Positions 7,170 through 29,874 of a stretch of DNA of 64,000 nt are shown here, piece after piece. Source of the stretch: Escherichia coli 042. GTDB taxonomy: Bacteria > Pseudomonadota > Gammaproteobacteria > Enterobacterales > Enterobacteriaceae. Location: assembly GCF_000027125.1 (NCBI RefSeq), contig NC_017626.1, one strand, 5' to 3'. Made by a program: the position numbers and the translations under genes. How positions within the stretch are numbered: the first letter of the stretch is position 1; each line of letters begins with the position of its first letter. The notes under the pieces are model-generated. The model was given only the letters and a program-made list of their open reading frames with translations, had not been told where the DNA came from and searched no databases.

Positions 7170-9317
7170 TTACGCCAGTGCCGCTTCGCGCAGGCGAGTT
7201 TTCAACTTGTTGTACTCGTCAATCACGTACTGCTCGGCGGCGCGCTGATCGGCGATCGACTCGACGCGCACGGCGCAGTATTTGTATTCCGGCGTTTTCG
7301 TAATCGGGCTTAAGTTTTCGGTAACCAGCTCGTTACAGGCACCAATCCACCACTGGTAGGTCATATAAATCGCCCCTTTGTTCGGACGATCGCTGACCTG
7401 CGCACGGGTGATAATTTTGCCTTTACGCGAGTGCACCCAAACCAATGCCTCATCTTCAATACCCAGACGTTTGGCGTCTTCGGTATTGATTTGTGCGTAG
7501 CCAGGTTCATCAGCCAGCGCCGCCAGTGCCGCACAGTTACCGGTCATCGAACGGCAAGAGTAGTGACCAACTTCACGCACCGTTGACAGTACCATCGGAT
7601 ACTCGTCGGTGAGTTTGTCGATTGGCGCTACCCAGTCGCAGGTGAAGAACTGCGCCAGACCGTTCGGGGTATCAAACTTCTCTTTAAACAGATAAGAAGT
7701 CCCCTGATCGGCATCTGAAGTATCGCGGCAAGGCCACTGAATGAAGCCCAGTTCGCCCATTTTCTCGTAAGTCGCACCGTAGAAATCCGGGCACAGATGA
7801 CGCAACTCATCCCAGATCTCCTGGGTGTTGTTGTAGTGCATCGGATAACCCATACGAGTGGCAATTTCACTGATGATTTGCCAGTCCGTTTTCAGATCCC
7901 ATTTCGGTTCAACTGCTTTGAAGAAACGCTGGAAGCCACGGTCAGCCGCAGTAAACACGCCTTCATGCTCGCCCCACGACGTTGACGGTAAAATAACATC
8001 CGCCGCCGACGCGGTTTTGGTCATAAAGATGTCCTGAACGATAACCAGTTCCAGATCTTCAAAGGCTTTACGTACTGCCGACAGCTCCGCGTCAGTTTGC
8101 AGCGGATCTTCGCCCATAATGTACGCGGCACGCACTTCGCCATGCGCTGCGCGGTGCGGCAGCTCGCTGATGCGATAGCCGGTATGCGCTGGCAGGCTTT
8201 CCACGCCCCAGGCTTTGGCGAATTTCTCGCGGTTAGCCGGATCTTTCACGTACTGGTATCCCGGATACGTATCCGGCAGCGCGCCCATATCGCAGGCACC
8301 CTGCACGTTGTTCTGACCACGAACCGGGTTTACACCCGCATGCGGCTTACCGAGGTTACCGGTCAGCATCGCGAGGCTGGTCAGAGAACGCACGGTTTCC
8401 ACGCCCTGGTAGAACTGGGTTACACCCATGCCCCACAGGATGGCGGCGCTTTTCGCCTGGGCATACATCCGTGCCGCCTGACGAATCTCACTGGCGCTGA
8501 CGCCGGTGATATCTTCAACCGACTCCGGCGTGTAGCCTTCAACGATTTTACGATACTCTTCAAAGCCTTCTGTACGGGAAGCGACGAATGCTTTGTCGTA
8601 CAGATTTTCTTCAATAATGACATGGCCCATCGCATTCAACAGCGCGATGTTCGAGCCGTTTTTCAGTGCAATGTGGATGTCCGCAATGCGCGCGGTTTCA
8701 ATTTTGCGCGGATCGCAGACGATAATTTTCGCCCCGTTACGTTTAGCGTTAATTACGTGATTCGCCACGATTGGGTGGGAATCCGCCGGGTTGTACCCGA
8801 AAACGAACACTAAATCGGTATTATCAATTTCGTTAATAGCATTGCTCATTGCGCCATTACCGACCGATTGGTGCAGACCTGCAACCGATGGGCCGTGTCA
8901 GACACGAGCGCAGCAGTCAACGTTATTGGTACCAATAACGGCGCGCGCAAATTTTTGCATTACATAGTTGGTTTCGTTACCCGTACCACGCGAGGAGCCG
9001 GTCGTCTGGATGGCATCCGGACCGTACTTCTCTTTGATGGCGCTCAGGCGCTCGGCAACGTAATTCAGTGCCTCATCCCAGGAAACAGGTTCGAGTTTGC
9101 CGCCACGCTGGCGACGGATCATGGGGGTTTTCAGGCGCGGGGTCAGGATCTGGGTATCGTTAATGAAATCCCAGCCATAATAACCCTTCAGACACAGGGT
9201 ACCCTGGTTGGTTTTCCCCTGCGCTGCCTCCGCCCGGACGATTTTGCCGTTATCGACGACCAGGTTGATTTTGCAACCTGATGCGCAATAGGGGCAAACC
9301 GTGACGACTTTTTTCAT
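7170..9317 (-). CDS. fdhF: Formate dehydrogenase H (selenocysteine/molybdopterin enzyme); in-frame UGA at 8898-8900 decoded as Sec
   Basis: ORFs 8898..9317 and 7170..8849 are in the same frame, separated only by TGA (complement of tca at 8898-8900); together 715 codons; N-terminal Cys cluster (CPYCASGC). Confidence 0.95.
8850..8897 (-). other. SECIS mRNA stem-loop directing selenocysteine insertion at the fdhF UGA
   Basis: Immediately 3' of the UGA on the coding strand: CACGGCCCAUCGGUUGCAGGUCUGCACCAAUCGGUCGGUAAUGGCG, which I recognise as the fdhF SECIS hairpin. Confidence 0.85.
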
Positions 9318-14078: not shown

Positions 14079-14354
14079 TTAGAAAAATGCCAGCCAGAAC
14101 AGCATGGCGTAGAGAGCAAAAAGGGCGGTATAAATAATTCCGACAAATGCCAGATTGATATTTGCCCGCTGAATAATTCGCCTCGTGATGAGCGTCAAAA
14201 TAAGGCTGGCAATGGCGCAGAAAAACCAGCTGGGATAATAAGCGCCGATCACCGGGATTGCCGGAGATAATGAGCATCCCGAAACCATGAAGACGGGAAT
14301 TATCCAGACTGTTTTTTTGAGTTGCATCGCCATGCGAGAGAGAACTGTTGGCAT
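14079..14354 (-). CDS. ytcA: Small lipoprotein YtcA
   Basis: Start chosen at MPTVLSRMAMQLKK... (91 aa) within the 107-aa track ORF; lipobox (MVSGC); 18 bp upstream of mdtN. Confidence 0.75.
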   Translation of the reverse strand: MPTVLSRMAMQLKKTVWIIPVFMVSGCSLSPAIPVIGAYYPSWFFCAIASLILTLITRRIIQRANINLAFVGIIYTALFALYAMLFWLAFF

Positions 14355-14526
14355 ATTAAATACATCCTGTCTGCTGCGAACAATATCTGTAGTGAATATC
14401 AATATCCATTGAAGGCGTCAGTATGGCTATTTTCTCGATGAATAAAAATAGCTTTATTCAGCCACCGCATTCATAACTTATATATTTTATGTATTAATTT
14501 GTTGTATGTATTTTTAAAATAAATGC

Positions 14527-14552
14527 TTTTGGGGGCTTAAGCGCCCCCAAAA
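14527..14552 (-). terminator. GC-rich hairpin, likely intrinsic terminator after yjcS
   Basis: Inverted repeat ttttgggggcttaagcgcccccaaaa flanked by A/T runs, 11 bp past the yjcS stop. Confidence 0.6.
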
Positions 14553-14562
14553 GTGAGTGGCA

Positions 14563-16548
14563 TTAATTTGGGGTTACGATATTCACCCACAAATCGAAAT
14601 TATCCAGACAGGCAATAATTTCTTCCAGTTTCGCGCCATTGCCAATAATTTTGGCTTTCTTCGCTTTTACCAGATCCGCCATTTTGGCTTGTGCGGTCAG
14701 CACGGCGTGAAGATCTTCACGGCTGATGTAGAAAGAGGCGTTGGCTTCAGGTTGCAGCGTTTTACGGTAGTTAAGCACGCTATCGTTCAGCGTCAGGTTG
14801 AGGTTATCGCCGTTGCTCATATTGAAGTTCAGGCTGATATTCTTACCTGCGGCTTTCGCGCTATCGAGGCGAACGGCCATAAAGTCGAATAGCATTTCGA
14901 CCGACATTCCGCGAAGGGTGTCCGGGAAACCGGTGGAGCTGTGGCTGAACTTATGTACCCCTTCGCGCAGCTCTTTCGCGCCGGTCAGGTAGAAACCGCG
15001 CCAGGTGGCGGACTCGGCCTGATAGCCCAGCTGTTCAAAGTTATTCGCTTGCAGATTCTTCGCGACCTGGTCACCAGGGTTGGCGGCAATCACCTGTTTC
15101 AGCAGTTCTGCCGACCAGCGGTAATCACCTTGCTTGTTCGCTTCTTGCGCCAGGTTGATGACACGGGCAGAACCGCCCAGCGCCTGCACGTAACGTTTAC
15201 CCATCTCCACCTGACCATACGGATGCAGGTTAGCCGGGTTACCGTCGTAATAGCCAAGATAGAAGTTATACACCGCGCGGGCGTTGTGGCTGACAGAACC
15301 GTAATAGCCGCGGCTGGCCCAGTTATTGGCAAGCGCAGGCGGCAGCTTAATCATGTCGCCGATTTCATTCATGGTGTAGCCCTGGTTTGCCAGGTGCAGG
15401 GTCTGGTCGTGAATGTACTTGATGGTATCGCGATATTTACCAATATAATCATTGATATGCTTATTGCCCCAGACCGGCCAGGTGTGCGGCATAAACAGTA
15501 CTTCCGCGTCATTACCCCACATATCCAGCGTTTCGTTCAGATACTCGGTCCACTTGCTGGTGTCGCGGGTTTTCGCGCCGCGCAGAGTGTAGAAGTTGTG
15601 CAGGGTATGCGTGGCGTTCTCGGCGGTACACAGGGCTTTCAGAGCCGGAATATAGAAGTGCATTTCGGCTGGCGCTTCGCTACCCGGAGTCATCAGGAAG
15701 TCAAATTCCAGGCCGTCGATAATCATCTTCTCGCCAGTTCTGACGATAGTTTTAGTCGGTGCAATAATGCTCGGGTCGCCCGTTGCCAGCGTCACGCCCA
15801 GGCCGTTGCCCACGTTGCCTTGCGCGTTGTGCGGCAGTAACAGACCGTAAGAGTAGAGCGCACGGCGGCTCATGATGTTACCCGCCAGCACGTTTTCGCT
15901 GATGGCTTCGTCCATAAAGCCTGCCGGAGCGATCACCTGCACTTTGCCGGATTTAACATCCGCTTCAGAGATAATGCCTTTCACACCGCCATAATGGTCG
16001 GCGTGGCTGTGGGTGTAAATCACAGCAACAATCGGTTTTTGCGGACGATGCTGGAAGTAAAGGTCAAGTGCGGCTTTTGCGGCAGGCGGCGTCACCAGCG
16101 GGTCGATAACAATAATGCCTTTTTCGCCTTCTACAAATGTAACGTTAGAGATATCTTGGCCGCGCACCTGATACATTTTATCGGTGACTTTGAACAGGCC
16201 AGAAATACCGTTGATTTGCGACTGACGCCACAGGCTGGGGTTTACGGTTTCCGGCGCAGCGGCATTAATATCAAATTTGTAATCGTCTGCGCGGTAGTAA
16301 ACTTTACCGTTCGCATCACGCAGAATACCTTCATCCAGCAGCGGGGCGATAAATCCACGCTGGGCATCGTCAAAATCTTGACGATCGCTAAACGGTAATG
16401 ATTTGGCGTAATTCTGATTAATCTGTTGGGTATATTGAGTGGCGGCTTTCGCTTCCTCTTTCGCGTTAGCGGTATTTACCATCATGCCGCTGGCGGCAGT
16501 TAACGCAATAACAATCCTGCTCAAACGGAATAACCGAGAGTTATTCAT
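14563..16548 (-). CDS. yjcS: Alkyl/aryl sulfatase, metallo-beta-lactamase fold
   Basis: Signal peptide; HSHADH zinc-binding motif ([11 protein letters not shown]); start taken at the second in-frame Met region (MNNSRLF...); track ORF is 665 aa. Confidence 0.9.
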
Positions 16549-16800
16549 ATAAATCTCCATTTATCATTTATGTCGTAAATATGTAGTCCATGCAAAATAC
16601 GTCATTTGAAGCTGGCGTTATCATAATTGGGAATTTGCGACTTTAATAAGTGGAAGTGTGAGCGGAGCGAGCCATTTTATTAGGCATTTGTGCTGAAGAG
16701 GGAAAAGTACGCGAATTTATTATCTCTGTAAATAATATGAGGTATTTTATATATTTATTATATATATTGTACTTCGGCAAATACTGAGCACAATTAATCA

Positions 16801-17118
16801 ATGCAACCGGTGTTTCTTTTTAAAAAACGTACCGGAGCAATGGGCGGTCATGTCGCTGGCACCGCAGGATTCTGTGTTGCTGTGCCAACCTTTTATTCAT
16901 GGTCAATGAGTGAGGGGATTGATAAAGAAACCAGGTCGTCAGAGCGCACTGATTATCCGCATTACGCCAGTGACGTTGCACTGGCTTTTGGTTCACGAGT
17001 GGTTGGCCTCGAACTGGCAAAAATGATTGTGGATGCGTGGCTGGGCGCGCAGTACGAATGCGGTCGTCATCAACAACGCGTGGAGGCGATTACGGCAATA
17101 GAGCAGCGGAAAAATTGA
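16801..17118 (+). pseudogene. rpiB: Degenerate remnant of ribose-5-phosphate isomerase B (rpiB) with internal deletion and non-homologous 5' part
   Basis: 105 aa ORF contains SSERTDYPHYAS...VALA joined directly to FGSRVVGLELAKMIVDAWLGAQYE.GRHQQRVEAITAIEQR, which I recall as RpiB residues about 36-53 and 107-149; the catalytic middle is absent. Confidence 0.6.
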
Positions 17119-17186
17119 GATTCATCCACTACTTGCATGGATGAGTAATGACTAATATGGATAGAGTTTCTTTTTGAGGTTGGCTA

Positions 17187-17516
17187 ATGAAACGCTTTCC
17201 GCTATTTCTTTTATTCACCCTGCTCACGCTGTCCACCGTTCCGGCCCAGGCCGATATTATCGACGACACCATTGGCAATATTCAGCAGGCGATTAACGAT
17301 GCTTATAACCCTGACCGTGGGCGAGACTATGAAGATTCGCGCGACGACAGCTGGCAGCGTGAAGTGAACGACGATCGGCGCAGACAATATGACGATCGCC
17401 GCCGCCAGTTTGAAGATCGCCGCAGGCAGCTGGACGATCGCCAGCGCCAGCTTGATCAGGAGCGTCGGCAACTGGAGGATGAAGAGCGGAGAATGGAAGA
17501 TGAGTATGGGCGGTGA
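17187..17516 (+). CDS. yjdP: Secreted charged-repeat protein YjdP
   Basis: 109 aa; signal peptide (MKRFPLFLLFTLLTLSTVPAQA); tandem DDRRRQ-type repeats; GAGG RBS upstream. Confidence 0.8.
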   Translation: MKRFPLFLLFTLLTLSTVPAQADIIDDTIGNIQQAINDAYNPDRGRDYEDSRDDSWQREVNDDRRRQYDDRRRQFEDRRRQLDDRQRQLDQERRQLEDEERRMEDEYGR

Positions 17517-17550
17517 TGTTGAGTCTAGAGCAGGCATCGCCCCTCACCCA

Positions 17551-18321
17551 TCACTCCACCCCAATCTCCACCCCAATCTCCATCCCATCAAACCCCGCCT
17601 CAAACCCCGACGGCAGTGCGTTTTCCATCAGCCACGCATCAAACTGGTGGCTGATATGGGTCAGAATCACCCGTGGCGAGCGGATAACCTGATTCAGCGC
17701 AAGCACGGTATTTAAATCACAGTGATTACGCGGTGCATCCTCGCGCGGCGGGTGGCTGCAATCAATCACCATTACCTGTGGCTGATTATTGCGTAAAAAT
17801 TTCAGCGTTTTTTCCGGCAGGCCTGCGGTGTCAGACAGCCACGCCACCCGGCTATGTGCCGTTTCCAGTAAATAGCCGAAAGTGAGTTTCGAATGATTGA
17901 GCGGCAGCGGCGTGACCTGTAATCCCTGCAAATCAAACACTACAAACGGTTCCACCGTGTGGCTGAAATCAAGCAGGCCCGGATGTTTAAACAGATCGTC
18001 GCAGCCCTGTTCATCCGGCGGGCCGTAGACCGGGATCGAATCGCCCACGCCCCAGCGCAGCGGAAACAGCCCCTGCACGTGATCCATATGGTAGTGCGTC
18101 AGCAAAAACTGCTGGAACGATCCGGGCGACCAGCGATCGGCGAGATCGTGCAGCCCGGCGTCGATCAGGGTGATCGCGTCGTTAAACTTCACGACGCCGC
18201 TGCATGGCTGGCGGCGATACTGTGGTGAGCGCCGCGCTCTGACGCAGGCCGCGCACTCGCAGCCCCATGCCGGAACGCCCTGTGCGCCGCCGGTGCCGGT
18301 GAGCGTGAGGGTCAGACTCAT
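17551..18321 (-). CDS. phnP: PhnP, phosphoribosyl 1,2-cyclic phosphate phosphodiesterase
   Basis: 256 aa metallo-beta-lactamase fold (HYHMDH); last gene of the phn operon; C-terminus carries a 12-bp tandem duplication. Confidence 0.9.
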
Positions 18322-18322
18322 G

Positions 18323-18757
18323 TTACAGCGCCTTGGTGAAGCGGAAGTGACTCTGCTCGTAGCCTTCTCGCAGATAGAAACGGTGCGCGTCGTGGCGCTT
18401 CACGTTGGTCGAAAGCTCAGTCATTTCGGCCCCGGCCTGGCGGGCTTCTTCTTCTGCCCACGCCAGCAACTTGCTACCGACGTTCAGGCCGCGCGCCTGC
18501 GGCATCACCACCAACTCCTGAATTTCGCCGATCCAGTTGACATGATGCAGATGAAACTGCAAATGCAGGCCGATCATGCCGACAACTTCGCCATCCAGTA
18601 GCGCCAGATGGTAGCGCATGTTTGGGTCGCGCAGGTTGGCGTTAAAGCCCACGCGAAACGCGTGGTGGTCAAACTCCGCCTGTTTTAGCTCACAAATCAG
18701 CGCGTAAACTGCGTCGGTGTCGTACTGCGTAGCCGGGCGAAGCTCACAAGCAGGCAT
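18323..18757 (-). CDS. phnO: PhnO, aminoalkylphosphonate N-acetyltransferase
   Basis: 144 aa GNAT-fold protein; operon position. Confidence 0.9.
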
Positions 18758-19301
18758 GGTGTTTCTCCTTCTGATGAATCAGCGTCAGCAGCTTGTCGAC
18801 CGACTGGCGCAGGCTGCCGTCATTATTGAGCGTAAGACAATCCTGAGGAGTATAGCGGGCAGCGCGTGCCAGTCGGGCGTTAATTTCACTGGCATTTTCA
18901 CGACCACGGTTTTCGAGGCGCTGGCGCAGGATCTCCGGCGAAACCTGTAAACAAACGGGCAGCAGCGCCGATTGATAGCGCGCCCGCGCCTGCGGCAGAT
19001 GGGCGCGTGAGCCGTTGACCATCACGTCAAATCCAGCGTGCAGCCAGAGGTCAATCTCGACGCCGATGCCATAATACAGGCCGTTGGCGTGCCAGCTTAA
19101 GGCCAGAAGGTTCTGCCCCGCGCGGGTAAAAAACTCCTGCTCGCTCAGGGCGATATGGTTTTCACTTCCGGCGCTGGCGGCGCGCGTGATGTAGCGATGC
19201 GCTACCAGTAGCTGAGTTTGTTCCCGCTGGCGAAGTTCCGTCAACAGACTGTCTTTTCCGGAGCCAGAGGCCCCCATTAACCAAATCAGTTTTCCCGTCA
19301 T
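18744..19301 (-). CDS. phnN: PhnN, ribose 1,5-bisphosphate phosphokinase
   Basis: 185 aa with P-loop (GASGSGKDS); overlaps phnO and phnM. Confidence 0.9.
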
Positions 19302-20437
19302 CAGAACACCCTTTTACCCTGACGCCAGACGTGGTCGATATGAATGTGGTTGCCCTTGCGATGCGCCAGCACCAGGTCGGCGCGTTTGCCCTCGCCAATC
19401 ACCCCGCGATCCTGAAGATTAAGCGCCTGCGCCGGATTTTTAGTCACCAGCTTCACCGCCTGCGGCAGCGTAAAGCGGTTGCTCTCGTCATCGGCGACGC
19501 GAAATGCCGCATCGAGCAGGCTGGCGGGGTAGTAGTCGGAAGAGAGGATATCCAGCAGGCCAAGCTGCGCCAGTTCACTGGCCGCCACGTTGCCGGAGTG
19601 CGAACCGCCGCGCACGATATTCGGCGCGCCCATCAGCACGTTCATGCCATGCTTGCGCGAGGCTTCTGCCGCTTCGAACGTGGTGGGAAATTCGGCGATC
19701 ACGCTGCCAAGCTGGTGGGATTCGGCAACGTGCGCGTGCGTGGCGTCATCGTGGCTGGCGAGGGCAATGTGTCGCGCGCGGCACATTGCGGCGATGGTTT
19801 CGCGATTTGGCTGCGACCAGCGTGCGGCGAGCGCCAATTGCTCTTCTTCGTACTGCTGCATCTGCGCATCGGTGAGGGAATATTTGCCCTGATAATATTC
19901 GCGATACTTCTCGCGATTGGCGAACTGGCGCTGGCCTGGCGAGTGGTCCATCAGCGATACCAGCGTCACCGGTTCGCGCTGCACCAGTTTTTCAAACAGC
20001 GGCAACGTGGTGTGGTGCGGCAGTTCGCAGCGCAGGTGCAGGCGGTGCTCGGCGCGGTTGACGCCGCGTTTCTGCGTCTCTTCGATGGCGTTGATCATCT
20101 TCTCCAGATTCTCCAGCCGATCGCCGCCGTCGCGCACATCACCAATCGCCACGGCGTCCAGTACGGTGGTGATGCCGCTTGCCACCATCAGCGCGTCGTG
20201 GCTGCTCATCGCCGAATGGGCGGGCCAGTCGACTTTCGGGCGCGGGGTGAAGAATTTATCGAGGTTGTCGGTATGCAGCTCAATCAGGCCGGGTAGTAGC
20301 CAGCCACCTTCGCCGTCCATCGCTTCCGGCTGGCGGCTCTGGCTTTCGGCAAAGGCGCGAATTTCGCCATCCTGTACTTCCAGTGAACCGTGCACCACTT
20401 CGTTTTCCAGCACCAGTTTGACGTTATTGATAATCAT
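19301..20437 (-). CDS. phnM: PhnM, RPnTP diphosphatase (amidohydrolase fold)
   Basis: 378 aa; operon position; overlapping stop/start with neighbours. Confidence 0.9.
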
Positions 20438-21114
20438 GAAGAGGCTCCCATCGGGTGCAGGCGGTCGGCGACGTCATTGCGTACGGCTTCGTCATGGAAG
20501 ATACCGACGATGGCTGCGCCACGGGCTTTAGCTTCGAGAATCAGTTCCACCACCGCGGCGCTGTTTTTGGCGTCCAGCGAGGCGGTAGGTTCGTCGAGCA
20601 GCAGAATGGGGTAGTCGACGATAAAGCCACGGGCGATGTTGACGCGCTGCTGTTCGCCGCCGGAGAAGGTCGATGGTGCAAGGTGCCACAGGCGTTCAGG
20701 CACGTTCAGGCGCGTCAGTAATCGGGCGGCTTTAGCGGCGCAGGCTTCACGCGGTACGCCGGTATCGAGCAGAGGCTGCATCACCACTTCCAGTGCCGAA
20801 ATACGCGGGATGACGCGCAGAAACTGGCTCACCCAGCCGATGGTGGTTTTGCGGATCTCCACCACTTTGCGGGCTGGCGCGGTGACCAGGTCTACCCATT
20901 CCTCACCGTGTTTGATCTGGATTTGCCCTTCGTCGGGCAGATAGTTGGCGTACAGCGAGCGCAGCAGGGTTGATTTTCCGCTGCCGGAGTGGCCGTGAAG
21001 CACCACGCATTCGCCTGCGTTGACGGTGAGCGAGGCACGTTGTAAGACGGGCAGGCGCACGCCGTTTTGCTGGTGCAGGATGAAGGTTTTACTGACGTTT
21101 TGTACGTTAATCAT
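20434..21114 (-). CDS. phnL: PhnL, ATP-binding component of C-P lyase complex
   Basis: Start chosen at [11 protein letters not shown] (226 aa) inside the 240-aa track ORF; Walker [10 protein letters not shown]. Confidence 0.9.
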
Positions 21115-21157
21115 TTTTCGCCTCGTGGTTCGCATATTGGGGATCGGCGCGCGCATT

Positions 21158-21207
21158 GCCCCTCACCCTAGCCCTCTCCCCTCTGGGGAGAGGGCCGGGG
21201 TGAGGGG
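21158..21207. repeat. GC-rich imperfect palindromic element (boxC-like) between phnL and phnK
   Basis: cccctcaccctagccctctcccctctggggagagggccggggtgagggg forms nested inverted repeats; a related sequence recurs at 26472-26558. Confidence 0.7.
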
Positions 21208-21230
21208 ACCAGCGCGCACGGTGTTGCAAC

Positions 21231-21989
21231 TCAATTCTGCAAAACCGATGACACCAGCAGCTGGGTATACGGATGATGCGGGTCGTCGAGCACGCGGTCG
21301 GTTAACCCACTCTCCACTACTTGCCCCTGCTTCATCACCAGCAAACGGTCCGCCAGCAGGCGGGCGACGCCAAGATCGTGGGTAACAATCACTACCGCCA
21401 GGTTCAGCTCCACCACCAGGCCGCGCAGCAGGTCGAGCAGGCGCGCCTGCACCGACACATCCAGCCCGCCGGTTGGTTCGTCCATAAACACCAGCTTCGG
21501 ATGCGTCACCAGGTTGCGGGCAATCTGCAAACGCTGCTGCATGCCGCCGGAAAAGGTGGTTGGCAGGTCGTCGATCCGGTTAGCGGGAATCTCGACCTCT
21601 TCCAGCCACTTCTGCGCGGTGGCGCGAATATCGCCGTAATGACGCGCCCCGGTCGCCATCAGCCGCTCGCCGATATTGCCGCCTGCCGACACCTGGCGGC
21701 GCAGGCCGTCGAGCGGATGCTGATGCACCACGCCCCATTCGGTGCGCAGCAGGCGACGGCGATCGGCCTCGCTCATGCCATAGAGGGAACGGTTTTCATA
21801 GTGAATCTCCCCTTGCTGCGGCGTCAGACGCGCGGAAATTGATTTCAGCAGCGTGGTCTTCCCGGAGCCGGACTCCCCGACGATGCCCAGCACTTCCCCC
21901 GGCCATAAATCAAAAGAGACATCGCTAAAGCCTTTGCCCGGCGCGTAAAGGTGGGTCAGGTTATTGACCGAAAGTAAAGGTTGATTCAT
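21231..21989 (-). CDS. phnK: PhnK, ATP-binding component of C-P lyase complex
   Basis: Start chosen at MNQPLLSVNNL (252 aa); Walker A GESGSGKTT; ABC signature. Confidence 0.9.
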   Translation of the reverse strand: MNQPLLSVNNLTHLYAPGKGFSDVSFDLWPGEVLGIVGESGSGKTTLLKSISARLTPQQGEIHYENRSLYGMSEADRRRLLRTEWGVVHQHPLDGLRRQVSAGGNIGERLMATGARHYGDIRATAQKWLEEVEIPANRIDDLPTTFSGGMQQRLQIARNLVTHPKLVFMDEPTGGLDVSVQARLLDLLRGLVVELNLAVVIVTHDLGVARLLADRLLVMKQGQVVESGLTDRVLDDPHHPYTQLLVSSVLQN

Positions 21990-22831
21990 TGGTTTTTTGC
22001 CTCGCTCTGTTGGCGGCAATAATCGGTATCGGAGCAGACAAACATGCGGTTTCCGGCGTCATCCAGCACCACTTCGTCGAGATAGCTGTGGGTCGATCCG
22101 CAGATGGCGCATGGCTCATCCCACTGCTGAACGGTGAACGGGTGATCGTCGAAATCGAGGCTTTCCACGCGGGTAAACGGCGGCACCGCATAGATGCGCT
22201 TCTCGCGTCCTGCGCCGAACAGCTGCAGGGCGGGCATCATGTTCATTTTCGGATTATCGAATTTTGGGATCGGCGATGGGTCCATGACGTAGCGCCCGTT
22301 CACCTTCACCGGATAGGCATAAGTGGTGGCGATATGACCGAAGCGGGCGATATCTTCATACAGTTTCACCTGCATCACGCCGTACTCCTCCAGCGCGTGC
22401 ATAGTGCGGGTTTCCGTTTCGCGCGGCTCGATAAAGCGCAGCGGTTCCGGGATCGGTACCTGGAAAATAATGATCTGATCTTCGGTCAGCGACGTTTCGG
22501 GGATGCGGTGGCGGGTCTGGATAAGCGTCGCATCGTCCGTACGTTCAGTGGTGTTTACCCCGGTCACGCGCTTAAAGAAGTTGCGAATTGATACGGCGTT
22601 GGTGGTGTCATCCGCACCCTGGTCAATCACCTTCAACACGTCGCTTTCGCCAATCACGCTGGCGGTAAGCTGGATACCACCAGTTCCCCAGCCGTACGGC
22701 ATCGGCATCTCGCGCCCGCCAAACGGCACCTGATAACCGGGGATCGCCACCGCTTTTAAGATGGCGCGGCGGATCATGCGTTTGGTCTGCTCGTCGAGGT
22801 AGGCAAAGTTGTAGCCGCTCAGATTAGCCAT
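21986..22831 (-). CDS. phnJ: PhnJ, C-P lyase catalytic subunit (radical SAM-like, Cys cluster)
   Basis: Start chosen at MANLSGYNFAYLDEQ (281 aa); C-terminal CxxCGSxxxYLDE cysteine motif. Confidence 0.9.
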   Translation of the reverse strand: MANLSGYNFAYLDEQTKRMIRRAILKAVAIPGYQVPFGGREMPMPYGWGTGGIQLTASVIGESDVLKVIDQGADDTTNAVSIRNFFKRVTGVNTTERTDDATLIQTRHRIPETSLTEDQIIIFQVPIPEPLRFIEPRETETRTMHALEEYGVMQVKLYEDIARFGHIATTYAYPVKVNGRYVMDPSPIPKFDNPKMNMMPALQLFGAGREKRIYAVPPFTRVESLDFDDHPFTVQQWDEPCAICGSTHSYLDEVVLDDAGNRMFVCSDTDYCRQQSEAKNQ

Positions 22832-23888
22832 GGTTCTGCTCCTGTTGCAGACGTTTGAGTAGCTCCAGTTCGGCCTGGAAATCGACGTAGTGCGGGAGTT
22901 TAAGGTGCGAGACAAAGCCTGCGGCTTCGACGTTGTCGGCATGCGCCAGCACGAACTCTTCATCCTGCGCCGGGCCTGTCGCGTGCTCGCCGTACTCCGG
23001 GGCTTGTAGAGCGCGGTCAACCAGCGCCATCGCCATCGCTTTGCGCTCGCTCATGCCGAACACCAGCCCGTAGCCGCGCGTGAAGTGCGGCGGCTCATCC
23101 GGCGGGTCGATAAAACCGTTGACCATTTCACATTCGGTCATCAGCAGTTCGCCGACGTTCACCGCAAATCCCAGCTCTTCCGGCACAATCGACACGTCGA
23201 TATAGCCGCTGCGGATTTCGCCTGCGAACGGATGATTGCGTCCGTAACCACGCTGGGTGGAGTAGGCCAGCGCCAGCAAATAGCCTTCGTCGCCGCGCAT
23301 TAATTGTTGCAGGCGGGAGGAGCGTGAGCAGGGGTAAACCGGCGGCGTGCGGGTGATGTCATCCGGCTGTGCGCCGCTATCCTCCTCAAACTTCGCCAGC
23401 CCCTGACGCGCCAGCAGGCTGAAAACGTGCGGCGACGGCTGTTGTGCGCTGTCGGCGGTGGTCAGCGTCGGCGCTTCGCCGTTTGCCAGCAGGGTGAAAT
23501 CGAGCAGGCGATGGGTGTAGTCGTAGGTTGGGCCAAGCAGCTGGCCGCCGGGAATATCTTTATAAACCGCTGAAATACGCCGTTCGAGACGCATCTCCGT
23601 GGTGTCGAGCGGCTCGCTTACCGCGAGCTTAGCCAGCGTGGTGCGGTAAGCGCGTAGCAGGAAAATCGCTTCGACGTTATCGCCGCTGGCCTGTTTCAGC
23701 GCCAGCGCCGCCAGTTCGCGGTCGGCAATGCCGCCTTCGGTCATCACGCGATCTACTGCAAGATTAAGCTGCTGTTCAATCTGGGCGACGCTCAGTTCAG
23801 GCAAATCGGTATTGCCCCGGCGTCGGCTCTCTTGCAGGGCGTGGGCGGCGTCGATCGCCTTCTCGCCCCCTTTCACGGCAACGTACAT
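22824..23888 (-). CDS. phnI: PhnI, C-P lyase core component (nucleosidase)
   Basis: Start chosen at [12 protein letters not shown] (354 aa) inside the 394-aa track ORF. Confidence 0.9.
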   Translation of the reverse strand: MYVAVKGGEKAIDAAHALQESRRRGNTDLPELSVAQIEQQLNLAVDRVMTEGGIADRELAALALKQASGDNVEAIFLLRAYRTTLAKLAVSEPLDTTEMRLERRISAVYKDIPGGQLLGPTYDYTHRLLDFTLLANGEAPTLTTADSAQQPSPHVFSLLARQGLAKFEEDSGAQPDDITRTPPVYPCSRSSRLQQLMRGDEGYLLALAYSTQRGYGRNHPFAGEIRSGYIDVSIVPEELGFAVNVGELLMTECEMVNGFIDPPDEPPHFTRGYGLVFGMSERKAMAMALVDRALQAPEYGEHATGPAQDEEFVLAHADNVEAAGFVSHLKLPHYVDFQAELELLKRLQQEQNHG

Positions 23889-24472
23889 CAGCACACCTCC
23901 ACATGAGTGGTTCGCGGGATAGCCAGCAGCCGCTCGCCGCAGGTCAGGATCAGGTCGATGCCGAGCGGGAACGGGTGCGGGCGCTCGGTAAGTTCGTGCA
24001 GAATGCACTCCGGCAGCTGCGGGGCGATCATTCGTTCTTCGGCAATACCCGCGCCAGTAAGGCGCAGCATGCGCCCGCCGCTCAGGCTGACGACCTGTAA
24101 AATCAGCGTCGCGCCCGCTTCTGGCGCAACAGCGGTGCCGCTGGAAAGGGCGTTAAGCTGTTCGCTGGAAATCGCCTCATCCGTTACCGCGAAGGTCGCC
24201 TGTTCCGGCTGGCTGACCAGCGGCGCGTTGGTATGAAAACGCAGGCTCTGGCTGACGATATCGTTACTTAATGGCGCAGAAAGCCACACCGGCGTGTCGT
24301 TATCGGCCAGCGTCAGCAGCACGCTGGTGGTGGCGATATTCAGTGGCTGCCAGCCGCGCTTGAGCTGATGCAGGGCGACAATCACGCCCGGCTCGCTCAT
24401 GGCCTTTAACAGGCGACGAAAACTGTGCTGGGCATCCTGCACGGGAAGCATAAAAGCGGTTTCCAGGGTCAT
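23888..24472 (-). CDS. phnH: PhnH, C-P lyase core component
   Basis: 194 aa; operon position with overlapping junctions. Confidence 0.9.
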
Positions 24473-24921
24473 GCGTTATCTCCGCGAACCATCGTAAAGA
24501 AGTCGACCCGGCTGGCGTTCACTTCGGCCTGGCGTGCGGCAATGCGTGCCATACGGTCAGCGTCCAGCGGGGCAATAAGGGTTTCTGATAAGTTTTGAAA
24601 ATGGCGGGTTTGCTGCATCAGCGCGTCAATCAGCGCGCAGCGTTCGGCGTGCTGTTTGTCGCGCCCCAGCACCCAGCTGTAGCCGAGCGTGCCGTCAGTC
24701 AGGCGTACGGTGGCGCGGGTGAGCGTGGCGTCGCCAGCAAAAAAGCGTTCGCCGGTGCCACCCATCCGCGCCTGAATCTGCACCAGGCCGGTTTCAGCGG
24801 CGCGGATTACTTCATAGTCGGCAGTGATGTTCAGCGCCTTCAGGCGGGCTGCCAGTTCAGCCGGTTGGCTGTGTGCCAGTACGGACATCCAGTGCTGGCG
24901 GGTCGCGGTATCTGCGTGCAT
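24469..24921 (-). CDS. phnG: PhnG, C-P lyase core component
   Basis: 150 aa; operon position. Confidence 0.9.
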
Positions 24922-25647
24922 TCAGTGCTCCATAGTGAATTCAATCATGTCGGCGCGCGTCAGGCTGACGGAGTACTCCGCCGGGCTGCTTTCACCGTCA
25001 CGGTGGTTAAGGGTGCGCACGCACAGCAGCGGCGACATATTCGGGATTTCAAGACGCTGGCACTCTTTGGCCTGGGCGCGGCGGGCGCTGATCCGCGTCT
25101 GGCTGCGGCGCAGCGCAATCCCCGTTTGCTCGCGCAGAAAATCGTGCAGCGAGCCGCTGTCGAAGCGTTGCAGCGTCGGCCAGAGGGTGAGGTCCGCAAA
25201 GTAGTGGTCGATTAAACAGAGCGCGACGCCGTTGACCCGGCGCAGGGTGCGCAGGTGGATAACGTTCTCGCCCTCGGTTATCCCCAGCGCGTCAGCGACG
25301 TGACCGGAGGCCGGGCGCAGCACCGACAGCAGTTTTTCGCTGGTGGGATGGCTGCCCTGATCCAGCAGGTTCTGGCTAAAACGCGCCTGGGCGTTGAGCG
25401 GGTAATCGAACGGGCGCATCAGTACCAGCACGCCGACGCCCTGACGGCGCTGTACCCAGCCTTTTTCCACCAGTTGGTCGATGGCGCGGCGCAGGGTGTG
25501 GCGGTTCACCTCAAAGCGCGCCGCCAGTTGCTGCTCGGCGGGAAGATAGTCGCCGCAGCGGTAGTGTTGACGAAGCTCCTGCTCAAGTTTTGCGGCTATC
25601 TCCTGATAGCGTGTTGGGTAGCTGGTCGGATGTGTAGACAAGTGCAT
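24922..25647 (-). CDS. phnF: PhnF, GntR-family transcriptional repressor of the phn operon
   Basis: 241 aa from MHLSTHPTSY...; GntR-type N-terminal HTH and UTRA-like C-terminal domain. Confidence 0.9.
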   Translation of the reverse strand: MHLSTHPTSYPTRYQEIAAKLEQELRQHYRCGDYLPAEQQLAARFEVNRHTLRRAIDQLVEKGWVQRRQGVGVLVLMRPFDYPLNAQARFSQNLLDQGSHPTSEKLLSVLRPASGHVADALGITEGENVIHLRTLRRVNGVALCLIDHYFADLTLWPTLQRFDSGSLHDFLREQTGIALRRSQTRISARRAQAKECQRLEIPNMSPLLCVRTLNHRDGESSPAEYSVSLTRADMIEFTMEH

Positions 25648-25667
25648 AGATATCAATGCCTCGCTTA

Positions 25668-26447
25668 TCAGATAAAGTGCTTACGCAACCGTTGAGAGAG
25701 GAAATCCAGCAGGCTGACCGTGACGATAATCAGCACCATCAGGGCGCAGGTTTGCTGGAACTGGAAACCGCGAATCGCTTCCCACAGCGTGACGCCGATC
25801 CCGCCCGCGCCGACCATGCCAACAACGGTGGCCGAACGGACGTTGGATTCGAAGCGATAGAGGGAGTAGGAGATCAGCAGCGGCATCACCTGCGGCAGCA
25901 CGCCGTAGAGGATCTCTTCGAGCTTGTTGGCACCGGTGGCGCGAATACCTTCCACCGGGCCGGGTTCAATTGCTTCTACCGCTTCGGAAAGCAGTTTGGA
26001 GAGCACGCCGGTGGTGTGGATAAACAGCGCCAGCACGCCAGCGAACGGGCCAAGGCCGACGGCGACCACGAACAGCATGGCGAAGACCATTTCGTTAATG
26101 GCGCGGCAGGCGTCCATCAGGCGGCGTACGGGCTGGTAAACCCACCACGGCACCAGGTTTTCGGCGCTCATCAGACCGAAGGGGATGGAGAGAACCACCG
26201 CCAGCGCGGTGCCCCAGACGGCGATTTGCAGCGTGACGGCCATTTCGGTGAGGTAATCCTGCCACTGGCTGAAATCGGGCGGGAAGAAGTCGGCGGCGAA
26301 GGTTGCCATGTTGCCGCCGTCTTTAATCAGCGTGAGCGGGGCCATTTCCGCGCCCTGCCACGAGACGACCAGCACGGCGAGAACAATGGCCCAGCTCAGA
26401 AGCGAGAACCAGCTGCGCTTGGGTGGGGCGATGGTGATGGTTTGCAT
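25668..26447 (-). CDS. phnE: PhnE, phosphonate ABC transporter permease (uninterrupted reading frame)
   Basis: Continuous 259-aa polytopic membrane ORF; no frameshift within the gene. Confidence 0.85.
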
Positions 26448-26471
26448 GTTTGGCTCCGTTTAATGTTTTCT

Positions 26472-26558
26472 CCCTCTCCCTGTGGGAGAGGGCCGGGGTG
26501 AGGGCATCAGCGTGCGCATTTTCCCCTCATCCTAACCCTCTCCCTCAAGGGAGAGGGG
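26472..26558. repeat. Two GC-rich palindromic elements (boxC-like) between phnE and phnD
   Basis: ccctctccctgtgggagagggccggggtgagggc and cccctcatcctaaccctctccctcaagggagagggg; same family as 21158-21207. Confidence 0.7.
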
Positions 26559-26572
26559 ACCGATCGAGCACA

Positions 26573-27589
26573 TTACTGCACCGCTTTACTCACCGAACTC
26601 ATCGCGCTTAACGCGTTGTTCAGGCGGTCCAGGTCATCCAGTTGCGCCTGAATGGCGCTGGTTTTTGCCAGCTTGTCCTGCTCATTCAGCCCTTTATTAC
26701 CTTTTACGCCCTGCATCTCTTTAAACAGTGCGAGTTGGCGAATCGGCACCAGTTGCAGGTCGCTGGAGGCGCGGAACGGGGCCCATCCCAGGCGCTCCAG
26801 CACCGCTTTCTCTTCCGGCGTTTTGCCGTAGTTCATAAAGAAGTCGTAGATCTTGTCTTTGGTGGTTTCGGACAGATTTTTGCGCCAGACGATCGGATCG
26901 CCTGGGATCAGCGGCGATTTCCAGATCACCTTCAGTTCTTTGAGCTTCTCCGGTGCGGAGGTTTTCAGCTTGTCGAGGTTTTCGGTGTTGTTGGTCGCCA
27001 CATCCACCTGTTTGTTGGCGACGGCCAGCGCGTTGGTTTCATGCCCGGCGTTGACGGTGCGCTTGAAGTCGCTGGCGGAGATATTGTTTTTGGCGAAGAC
27101 GTAGTAGCCGGGGACGAGGAAGCCAGAGGTGGAGTTAGGATCGCCATTGCCGAAGGTGAGATCTTTACGCTTCGCCAGCAGATCATTCAGGTTGTTGATC
27201 GGACTGTCTTTGTTGACGATCAACACGCTCCAGTAACCCGGCGATCCATCCGCCGCGACCGTCTGGGCGAAGACCTGACCGTTGGCGCGATCCACCGCTT
27301 CCATCGCCGACAGATTGCCGTACCAGGCGATATCCACTTTATTGAAGCGCATCCCCTGGATAATGCCCGCGTAGTCCGGGGCAAAGAAGGCGTTGACCTT
27401 TACGCCCAGCTTCTTCTCCATATCCTGTAAGAACGGAGTCCATTGCGGTTTCAGGTTTTGCTGTGATTCCGTTGAAATAATGCCGAAATTCAGCGCCTTT
27501 TCCTGCTCTTCGGCGTGCGCCGGGCTTAACAGGGTGCTGAGGCTGAACATGCTGGTGAAGGCCAGCGAGGCAATTATCTTAGCATTCAT
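26573..27589 (-). CDS. phnD: PhnD, periplasmic phosphonate-binding protein
   Basis: 338 aa with signal peptide; operon position. Confidence 0.9.
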   Translation of the reverse strand: MNAKIIASLAFTSMFSLSTLLSPAHAEEQEKALNFGIISTESQQNLKPQWTPFLQDMEKKLGVKVNAFFAPDYAGIIQGMRFNKVDIAWYGNLSAMEAVDRANGQVFAQTVAADGSPGYWSVLIVNKDSPINNLNDLLAKRKDLTFGNGDPNSTSGFLVPGYYVFAKNNISASDFKRTVNAGHETNALAVANKQVDVATNNTENLDKLKTSAPEKLKELKVIWKSPLIPGDPIVWRKNLSETTKDKIYDFFMNYGKTPEEKAVLERLGWAPFRASSDLQLVPIRQLALFKEMQGVKGNKGLNEQDKLAKTSAIQAQLDDLDRLNNALSAMSSVSKAVQ

Positions 27590-27613
27590 TCGTTTTCCTC
27601 AATGATGGGGATG

Positions 27614-28402
27614 TCAGGCAGCTTTCGCGTTTTCTTCGACGCGGTTGATGCTGCGGTAGAGATGGTCAAAACGTTCGTTATCAAACTGTTGGCTGCTGCC
27701 GTCGTAGAAGACGTGCCCCTGGCGCAGGGCGACGATGCGTTCGCAGTAGCGCAGGGCGTAATCCACCTGATGCAGCGTGACGACCACGGTAATGCCGTCG
27801 TTCTGGTTAATGTCGCGCAGGGTGTCCATCACGATGCGCGCCGATTCCGGGTCCAGCGAGGCGATGGGTTCGTCCGCCAGAATCACCTTCGCCTGCTGCA
27901 TCAGCGCGCGGGCAATCGCCACACGCTGCTGCTGTCCGCCGGAGAGGGTGGAAACTCGCTGATGGGCAAAGTGCACCATGCCAACGCGGGTCAGCGCCTG
28001 TAACGCGCGCTGTTTCTGCTCGCGGGTGAAGTAGCTAAAACAGGTGCGCCAGAATGGCGTGCTGCCGAGCGCGCCAATCAGCACGTTCTCCAGTACGCTC
28101 AGGCGATTCACCAGGTTGAATTGTTGGAAGATGTAGCCGGTATTGGCGCGGCTTTTGCGGATATCGCGGGCCAGGCGGCCTTCGCGCTGGACTGTGCGGC
28201 CCAGCAGCTCGATATGGCTACCGGCAGATTTATCGCCGGTAATCAAACCGCTTAAGTGACGTAAAAGGGTGGATTTGCCGGAACCCGACGGCCCAAGCAG
28301 AGCCACCATTTCACCGTGATGAATGTTCAGATCAACCGCGTGCAGCGCCTGATGCTGATTGAAGGTTTTGGCGAGCTTCTCGACACGGATAATCGTTTGC
28401 AT
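27614..28402 (-). CDS. phnC: PhnC, phosphonate ABC transporter ATPase
   Basis: 262 aa; Walker [10 protein letters not shown]; ABC signature LSGGQQQR. Confidence 0.9.
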
Positions 28403-28440
28403 GATGCAGCCTCCCTAAAAAAGTGGCTCCATCGTGGCGG

Positions 28441-28479
28441 ATTATTGTGACGATTTGGTTAATTAAAAGTGACTAACAG
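28441..28479 (-). promoter_or_regulatory. Pho box (PhoB binding repeats) of the phnC promoter
   Basis: Minus strand reads CTGTTAGTCACTTTTAATTAACCAAATCGTCACAATAAT, with direct repeats resembling the CTGTCAT-N4 Pho box consensus, about 40-75 bp upstream of the phnC ATG. Confidence 0.6.
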
Positions 28480-28534
28480 ATGAAGAGTTAACGGGAATTC
28501 GATGACAGTGCGGGAGGGCGGGCCTCCCGGCGGA

Positions 28535-28978
28535 TTATTGCGTTGGTTGTTGTTTGACGACATTAATCATCCACGGTACGCCAAATTTATCGGTGACTTT
28601 GCCGAAGCCATGCGCCCAGAAAGTTTCCTGCCAGGCCATTTCGATTTTTCCGTTGGCGGCAAGATTGTCAAACCAGCGTTTCCCTTCTTCGACCTGTTGC
28701 GAATCGAGCACTAACGTAAAGCCGGAGTAGCTGGCTTTTCCTGACGGTATAGCATCGCTCATCATGATATCGCTTCCGGCAATGCGCACATTGGCGTGGG
28801 CGATGGCGGTATCGGGAAATTGCATTCCGGAAGGGCAGTTCTCGGCGCTGTCCTGCGCTGATTTTGGCATTTCGCCGAAGCTGATTTTATAGATCAGTTC
28901 AGCGCCCAACGTACGTTGATAATAAGCAATTGCGTCGGCACAGTTACCGGCAAAAGAGAGGTAGGGACTTAACGGCAT
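28535..28978 (-). CDS. yjdN: Glyoxalase/bleomycin-resistance fold protein (PhnB)
   Basis: 147 aa; recognised as YjdN/PhnB. Confidence 0.85.
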   Translation of the reverse strand: MPLSPYLSFAGNCADAIAYYQRTLGAELIYKISFGEMPKSAQDSAENCPSGMQFPDTAIAHANVRIAGSDIMMSDAIPSGKASYSGFTLVLDSQQVEEGKRWFDNLAANGKIEMAWQETFWAHGFGKVTDKFGVPWMINVVKQQPTQ

Positions 28979-29137
28979 GATGGTGACCTCAGTTAAGAGA
29001 AGCCAGTTAAGTGTAGTTCGAAATTTATACAGATGAGAGGGAAGCCTGATAAGACGCGGTCAGCGTCGCATCAGGCAGTCGGCATCGTTGCCGGATGCGG
29101 CGCGAGCGCCTTATCCGGCTTACCGATCACAATACAA

Positions 29138-29473
29138 TCAGTTCTTTTTCACAAACTCAGATTTCAGTTTCATCGGACCAAAACCGTCGATTTTGCAATC
29201 GATGTTATGGTCGCCTTCAACCAGGCGGATGTTTTTCACTTTGGTGCCAATTTTCAGCATCGAAGAGCTACCTTTCACCTTCAGATCTTTAATGATGGTA
29301 ACGCTGTCGCCGTCAGCCAGCAGATTGCCGTTAGCATCTTTAACGATCAGCTCGTCGCTTTCCTGTGCAGGTTCTGCGTCGTTCCATTCGTAGGCACATT
29401 CCGGGCAGATGTACATGCCGTTATCTTCGTAGGTGTATTCGGAGTTGCATTTTGGGCAGTGTGGTAATGACAT
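29138..29473 (-). CDS. yjdM: Zinc-ribbon protein YjdM (PhnA)
   Basis: Start chosen at [26 protein letters not shown] (111 aa) with two CxxC pairs; the 160-aa track ORF extends upstream without support. Confidence 0.85.
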
Positions 29474-29874
29474 GTGGATTTCCTCAAAAGTCAGCAGGGC
29501 AAAAGCGCCAAAAAACGGCAGATTGCCGAAAAAGGCCGCAATTATACACAAAATCCCTGAGTTTGTCGGGGGTACTGCTGATTTTAGACGACGATCGTTT
29601 TCATTTGAAAGGAAACGCAAAAAGAAAATAATCTTTTTGCCTCCATTTATTATTTAAGATAAGGTTAATGCTCTACTTGTTCTTTTTTTAATTCAAATGA
29701 TATTTTTATCTTTCTGACGTTTTAAACGTATCGGAAGACGTTATTTATTCTAATAAAAAACAACACGCTAAATATAAAATTATTTCTTGCAGTAATTATA
29801 AAAGCCGAAAACAGAACTCAAAAACAATCTGGCTAAATAAAAGTAACAAAATTTGCTTTAAGGAAGAATTTTCT

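Follow-up and report, generated by a model that had tools for sequence, protein, structure and literature searches.

The phnE gene of Escherichia coli K-12 is rendered cryptic by an 8-bp insertion, the deletion of which restores transport (PMC6469041, PMC4759930). The locus described here lies in a 64-kb window (the whole stretch of E. coli DNA that was analysed) and raises the question of whether phnE and the phosphonate operon around it are intact, and whether phosphonate use can be predicted for the strain. The sequence-only reading of this stretch had proposed an uninterrupted phnE frame lacking the K-12 insertion, within a complete 14-gene C-P lyase operon.

The phnE reading frame and its 8-nt repeat tract

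The hydrophobic protein encoded at this position was identified as the phnE translation, and the following two features were defined.

25668..26447, minus strand: phnE, intact, membrane permease of the phosphonate ABC importer, 259 aa, ATG start; TIGR01097 and BPD_transp_1
26027..26042, minus strand: slippage tract, two tandem 8-nt units GCTGGCG(T/C), ORF nt 406-421; three copies in K-12

Alignment of the window phnE with the K-12 MG1655 pseudogene (b4583, NC_000913.3) contained a single indel, a gap of 8 nt, and no other frameshift. In K-12 the tract reads GCTGGCGT GCTGGCGT GCTGGCGC, i.e. three tandem copies of the unit, whereas in the window it reads GCTGGCGT GCTGGCGC, two copies, as it does in 2016C-3878, the E. 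coli strain that matched best. The two units begin at ORF nt 406 within a continuous frame; the three-copy 40-mer is absent from the window and the frame carries no +8 shift. Both the uninterrupted 259-codon ORF and the absence of the extra K-12 repeat were thus confirmed as originally proposed.

The consequence of the extra unit in K-12 is a frame shift at residue 141, after which the protein stops following residue 189. The motif EGIRATGA... begins at residue 166, and on established knowledge of ABC importers we take it to be the cytoplasmic EAA-type coupling loop. The K-12 shift therefore deletes this loop, from residue 166 on, together with the final hydrophobic segment, and the window protein keeps both. 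When one unit was removed in silico from the K-12 sequence to give a phnE+ revertant, the resulting 259-aa protein differed from the window PhnE at one position only (V21I), and the 27 nt differences between the window phnE and the K-12 haplotype were mostly synonymous. Activity has been reported for the K-12 revertant PhnE protein (PMC6469041), and from the single-residue difference to that active protein we infer that the window PhnE would transport phosphonates and Pi.

The TIGR01097 PhnE equivalog model scored 311.3 bits against a cut-off of 216.7 and covered residues 16-258 of 259, and Pfam BPD_transp_1 scored 91.8 bits against a cut-off of 26.4 over residues 88-258. The cognate genes phnC (27614-28402) and phnD (26573-27589) adjoin phnE on the same strand. 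The exact PhnE protein was found on at least 1000 public contigs, and RefSeq annotates phnE as intact, with an equal 780-nt extent, in near relatives.

The start codon was considered separately, the K-12 pseudogene being annotated from 51 nt further upstream. This annotation and the caveat in the sequence-only reading, according to which the ATG at 26447 could lie inside a longer, disrupted gene, are the only points in favour of the window phnE being a chance frame or a fragment with the wrong start. The frame before the ATG reads ...GRGRKH*TEPN-M, with an in-frame TAA five codons upstream, so that a longer phnE ORF is impossible and the ATG cannot be internal. A GGAG Shine–Dalgarno sequence lies 7 nt before the ATG and is kept in K-12 and 2016C-3878, and the 51 extra nt of the K-12 annotation fall in a REP-type spacer element that is missing from the window. 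The 780-nt extent annotated by RefSeq in the relatives is identical to that used here. The equivalog model, the upstream stop and the alignment accordingly ruled out both a chance ORF and an internal start, and we regard this alternative as having next to no probability. For annotation purposes, phnE in the window strain is an intact gene and not a pseudogene as in K-12.

The phn operon, its control region and predicted function

The 13 other K-12 Phn proteins each gave one full-length, ungapped tblastn match in the window, at 95.1-100% identity. The genes are in K-12 order on the minus strand, running from 28402 (phnC) down to 17551 (phnP), and the features of the operon other than phnE are as follows.

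28447..28479, minus strand: Pho box of the phnC promoter, CTGTTAGTCACTTTTAATTAACCAAATCGTCAC, inside the 132-nt yjdN-phnC spacer (28403-28534)
27614..28402, minus strand: phnC, ATPase of the phosphonate ABC importer, 262 aa; 98.5% to K-12; NF007438, 606 bits against a cut-off of 365
26573..27589, minus strand: phnD, periplasmic phosphonate-binding protein, 338 aa; 99.1% to K-12; TIGR03431, 376.5 bits against 261
26448..26572, minus strand: phnD-phnE spacer, 125 nt, two G+C-rich hairpin repeats (CCCTCTCCC-n4-GGGAGAGGG type), GGAG at the 3' end
24922..25647, minus strand: phnF, GntR-type regulator, 241 aa; 100% to K-12; NF007486, 518.6 bits against 363
24469..24921, minus strand: phnG, C-P lyase core subunit, 150 aa; 97.3% to K-12; TIGR03293, 177.5 bits against 89
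23888..24472, minus strand: phnH, C-P lyase core subunit, 194 aa; 97.4% to K-12; TIGR03292, 203 bits against 91.5
22824..23888, minus strand: phnI, C-P lyase core subunit, 354 aa; 98.9% to K-12; PF05861, 515 bits against 34.5
21986..22831, minus strand: phnJ, radical-SAM C-P bond-cleaving subunit, 281 aa; 98.9% to K-12; PF06007, 500.6 bits
21231..21989, minus strand: phnK, ATP-binding subunit, 252 aa; 99.6% to K-12; TIGR02323, 411 bits against 303
20434..21114, minus strand: phnL, ATP-binding subunit, 226 aa; 97.8% to K-12; TIGR02324, 369 bits against 256
19301..20437, minus strand: phnM, RPnTP diphosphatase, 378 aa; 97.9% to K-12; NF011981, 809 bits against 375
18744..19301, minus strand: phnN, ribose 1,5-bisphosphokinase, 185 aa; 95.1% to K-12; NF007485, 352.7 bits against 153
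18323..18757, minus strand: phnO, aminoalkylphosphonate N-acetyltransferase, 144 aa; 100% to K-12; NF007530, 314.7 bits against 142
17551..18321, minus strand: phnP, cyclic phosphodiesterase, 256 aa; TIGR03307, 428 bits against 272, residues 3-248

All phn genes begin with ATG, contain no internal stops and have the K-12 length, with the exception of phnP, which is longer by 4 aa. The NCBIfam equivalog cut-offs were passed by 12 of the products (PhnC, D, E, F, G, H, K, L, M, N, O and P). At E<=1e-10 no NCBIfam model matched PhnI or PhnJ, and both instead score far above their Pfam cut-offs. PhnJ keeps G32, C241, C244, C266 and C272; from established biochemistry we take Gly32 to be the radical site and Cys241, Cys244 and Cys266 to hold the Fe-S cluster, with Cys272 likewise assigned a role. 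The earlier statements that phnC to phnP are all present without frameshifts, and that the 14-gene operon is complete by sequence, therefore hold in gene order, reading frames and family models alike.

An operon that is intact by sequence could still belong to a strain unable to use phosphonates, whether through missense changes, the C-terminal duplication in PhnP, polarity caused by the hairpins that separate phnD from phnE, or a fault in the Pho regulon at another locus. Compared with K-12, several substitutions are indeed non-conservative, namely W124Y and G127R in PhnC, G98E and G264D in PhnI, K223H in PhnM and H156L in PhnN. Against a disabling effect, the exact PhnC, PhnI and PhnM sequences, like that of PhnE, are each found on at least 1000 public contigs, as would be expected of selected variants, and all products score above the curated family cut-offs. 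The exact PhnN protein was found on 33 contigs and matches accession CBG37283.1 exactly.

The 3' end of phnP carries an in-frame 12-nt tandem duplication, with GAGATTGGGGTG present twice at 17557-17580 (minus strand) just before the stop. It adds the residues EIGV, giving 256 aa compared with 252 aa in K-12, whose PhnP ends ...MEIGVA. This 4-aa insertion is a further point in favour of a defective operon; however, the family-model match spans residues 3-248, so the C-terminal extension lies outside the modelled domain, and the 256-aa form appears in 175 indexed blocks of the public collection, again as for a selected variant.

Near-identical sequences were found in independent public contigs and assemblies. 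The window aligned to L005, L007, L008 and L009 at 99.92-99.99% over approximately 20.8 kb, and to L004 at 99.94-99.98% in two blocks; L008 (LR134238.1) and L009 (LR134246.1) are GenBank records of approximately 5.3 Mb. Together with the widespread exact proteins, these contigs indicate that the variants described above are lineage-typical alleles and not sequencing errors. The closest complete RefSeq E. coli genomes were more distant, at 98.2-98.3% over the phn region and approximately 99.0% over 36000-60000, whereas identities of 99.9% or more were reached by GenBank and metagenome contigs; the lineage of the window is thus poorly represented among complete RefSeq genomes. As a separate observation, phnL, mdtN and mdtO are split into fragments in L008 and L009 (coordinates 7206-7888 and 14262-17346), with 5-13 gap openings in their alignments to the window; indels introduced during assembly, and not true pseudogenes, could account for these splits.

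The phnD-phnE spacer is polymorphic in E. coli, with two hairpins in the window, one in 2016C-3878 (64 nt) and a REP-type palindrome in K-12. Strong hairpins of this kind could modulate downstream expression, and the difference of the 125-nt, two-hairpin spacer from that of K-12 is a point in favour of polarity. On the sense (minus) strand of the spacer, however, no terminator-like site or T-tract was found after the hairpins, and a transcription terminator at this position was rejected. Spacers of the same 125-nt length lie between phnD and phnE genes that are annotated or called as intact in RM14516, L004, L005, L007, L008 and L009, RM14516 combining its spacer with an intact annotated operon. 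The perfect hairpin pattern occurs in one copy only in the whole window, and a 41-mer from the spacer gave no exact match in the GTDB species-representative genomes. The repeat may resemble the enterobacterial 'boxC' repeat.

The stretch between the yjdN terminator hairpin and the ATG of phnC is identical in the window, K-12 MG1655 and 2016C-3878. Within it, we take 28447..28479 to be the PhoB-binding site, as is established for the phnC promoter of K-12, and the identity to K-12 upstream of phnC is consistent with a putative Pho-regulated promoter for the operon. The regulators phoB, phoR and pst are located outside the window, which leaves some room for a defect elsewhere. Weighing these points together, we consider it improbable that the strain is unable to use phosphonates despite its intact operon.

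The preferred interpretation is instead that 17551-28479 (minus strand) is very probably the wild-type phnCDEFGHIJKLMNOP operon of E. coli in complete form, its phnE carrying the two repeat copies of the functional allele, from which we infer growth on phosphonates. The phn mechanism is known from K-12 and the E. coli B system. PhoB switches on the phnC promoter during phosphate starvation; PhnF presumably acts as repressor. PhnGHIJKLM, PhnN and PhnP convert alkylphosphonates via ribosyl-phosphonate intermediates to PRPP and an alkane, with PhnJ cleaving the C-P bond by radical-SAM chemistry. PhnCDE imports phosphonates and also Pi (PMC6469041), and PhnO acetylates aminoalkylphosphonates (PMC3463581). 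The intact phnE, the complete operon, the K-12-identical promoter region and the PhnJ residues make a phosphonate-using strain a sound prediction, and under phosphate starvation the window strain is accordingly expected to use phosphonates and import Pi through PhnCDE. Beyond correct annotation the result matters little.

Distribution of the two- and three-copy phnE alleles

Alleles were counted in a collection of complete E. coli genomes (n=5,426); phnE was found in 5,394 of them. Among the full-length matches in an evenly spread sample (n=29), 24 had the in-frame 780-nt footprint and five had a 788-nt footprint. A junction-spanning 40-mer for the three-copy allele was present at >=80% coverage in 1,010 of the 5,426 genomes (18.6%), and the exact two-copy 34-mer in 2,337, the remainder being untyped by these probes. 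The 34-mer count probably underestimates the intact alleles, since nearby SNPs break the 28-nt seed, and the 780- versus 788-nt footprints are the better guide. With short junction-spanning queries, no one-copy or four-copy allele was detected in the 5,426 genomes; matches to the four-copy query proved to be three-copy genomes with 40-nt footprints and were discarded.

These frequencies agree with the literature, in which most E. coli carry a functional phnE (PMC6469041). The finding for the window is therefore correct but already known, and the contrast with K-12 that the sequence-only reading implied is unremarkable, intact phnE being the common state in E. coli. At this locus it is K-12, the reference, that is atypical.

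The three-copy allele is nevertheless found beyond laboratory K-12. Judged from strain names and source fields, approximately two-thirds of the three-copy rows in the spread sample were non-laboratory isolates, with sources including people, pigs, poultry, wastewater and kangaroo. Six such isolates (L010-L015), in each of which phnE is annotated as 'frameshifted', differed from K-12 by 0-2 SNPs in 1,240 nt and had the 105-nt spacer length of K-12 from phnD to the phnE ATG. This near identity to K-12 suggests that the OFF allele has been inherited by descent on one phnE haplotype rather than having arisen by frequent independent switching. Fixation by descent in a large natural clade, approximately one-fifth of complete E. 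coli genomes, might in turn mean that certain niches tolerate or favour the loss of PhnCDE transport.

The same tract could also be read as a switch, in which case the two-copy state would be the present phase of this clone, natural populations would be mixtures of ON and OFF cells, and phosphonate utilization would be a reversible, population-level trait. The tract slips in K-12 in the three-to-two direction under selection (PMC6469041, PMC4759930), and in Pi-starved cells the 8-bp deletion appears at high frequency (PMC4759930). Going by its title as listed in PMC6469041, reference 6 of that paper terms the phase variation reversible, and both the two-copy and the three-copy alleles are natural. 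Frequent switching is nevertheless difficult to reconcile with the absence of one- and four-copy alleles from the 5,426 complete genomes, with the K-12 phnE haplotype shared by the six three-copy isolates, which points to descent in one clade, and with the low slippage rate to be expected of just two repeat units. We therefore consider this population-level reading rather unlikely, although it complements the main interpretation of an intact wild-type operon rather than excluding it. Considered at the level of the individual allele, the two-copy phnE of the window is probably able to flip to the three-copy OFF state by replication slippage, like the K-12 revertants. A broader proposal, namely that the 8-nt tract is a natural contingency switch rather than a laboratory oddity of K-12 and that ON strains such as that of the window could switch, is advanced only tentatively and is somewhat doubtful.

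Flanking genes and comparison with known systems

The operon is embedded in an E. coli-like gene neighbourhood. One flank comprises gltP, yjcO, fdhF, mdtPON, ytcA and yjcS, and the other comprises yjdN, yjdM, crfC, proP, basRS, eptA and adi, continuing through cadA. The genes bounding the gap on the phnP side are listed below.

14563-16560: yjcS
17187-17516: yjdP

The interval between them (16561-17186) lacks the als operon (alsK, E, C, A, B, R) and the greater part of rpiB, a region that amounts to approximately 7 kb at the yjcS-yjdP position in K-12 and RM14516. Fragments of rpiB are left at approximately 16911-16985 and from 16981 onward, and a 105-aa remnant ORF lies at 16801-17118. Each of the six public contigs encoding the 256-aa PhnP is organized in this way.

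The fdhF-like gene (7170-9317, minus strand) was called as two ORFs, 7170-8849 and 8898-9317; an in-frame TGA presumably lies between them, with no disruption of the gene implied. Such a codon is expected here, since formate dehydrogenase H uses TGA to encode selenocysteine, and in RM14516 the homologue is annotated by RefSeq as a single CDS containing selenocysteine. On the opposite flank, the yjdN-yjdM spacer (28979-29140) is approximately 160 nt long compared with 657 nt in K-12 MG1655, which indicates extra intergenic material in K-12 at that position. The footprints of the best RefSeq matches over 17100-29600 were approximately 380 nt longer than the window, and an IS1397-family transposase is annotated inside some of them.

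Compared with the E. coli phnE+ allele of K-12 revertants and most RefSeq genomes, the window phnE is the same in length (780 nt, 259 codons), in carrying two copies of the repeat unit and in its position between phnD and phnF. It is distinguished from the K-12 phnE+ haplotype by the 27 nt differences and by the content of the phnD-phnE spacer. With the cryptic K-12 allele (b4583, the phnE1 pseudogene) it shares the gene, the locus, the repeat unit and the flanks, but lacks the third 8-nt unit. At the level of the operon, the order and orientation of the 14 genes, the 95-100% protein identity and the flanking yjdN, yjdM and yjdP are those of the known E. coli phn system, from which the window differs in the four additional codons of phnP, in the missing als operon and most of rpiB on the phnP side, and in its intergenic repeat content.
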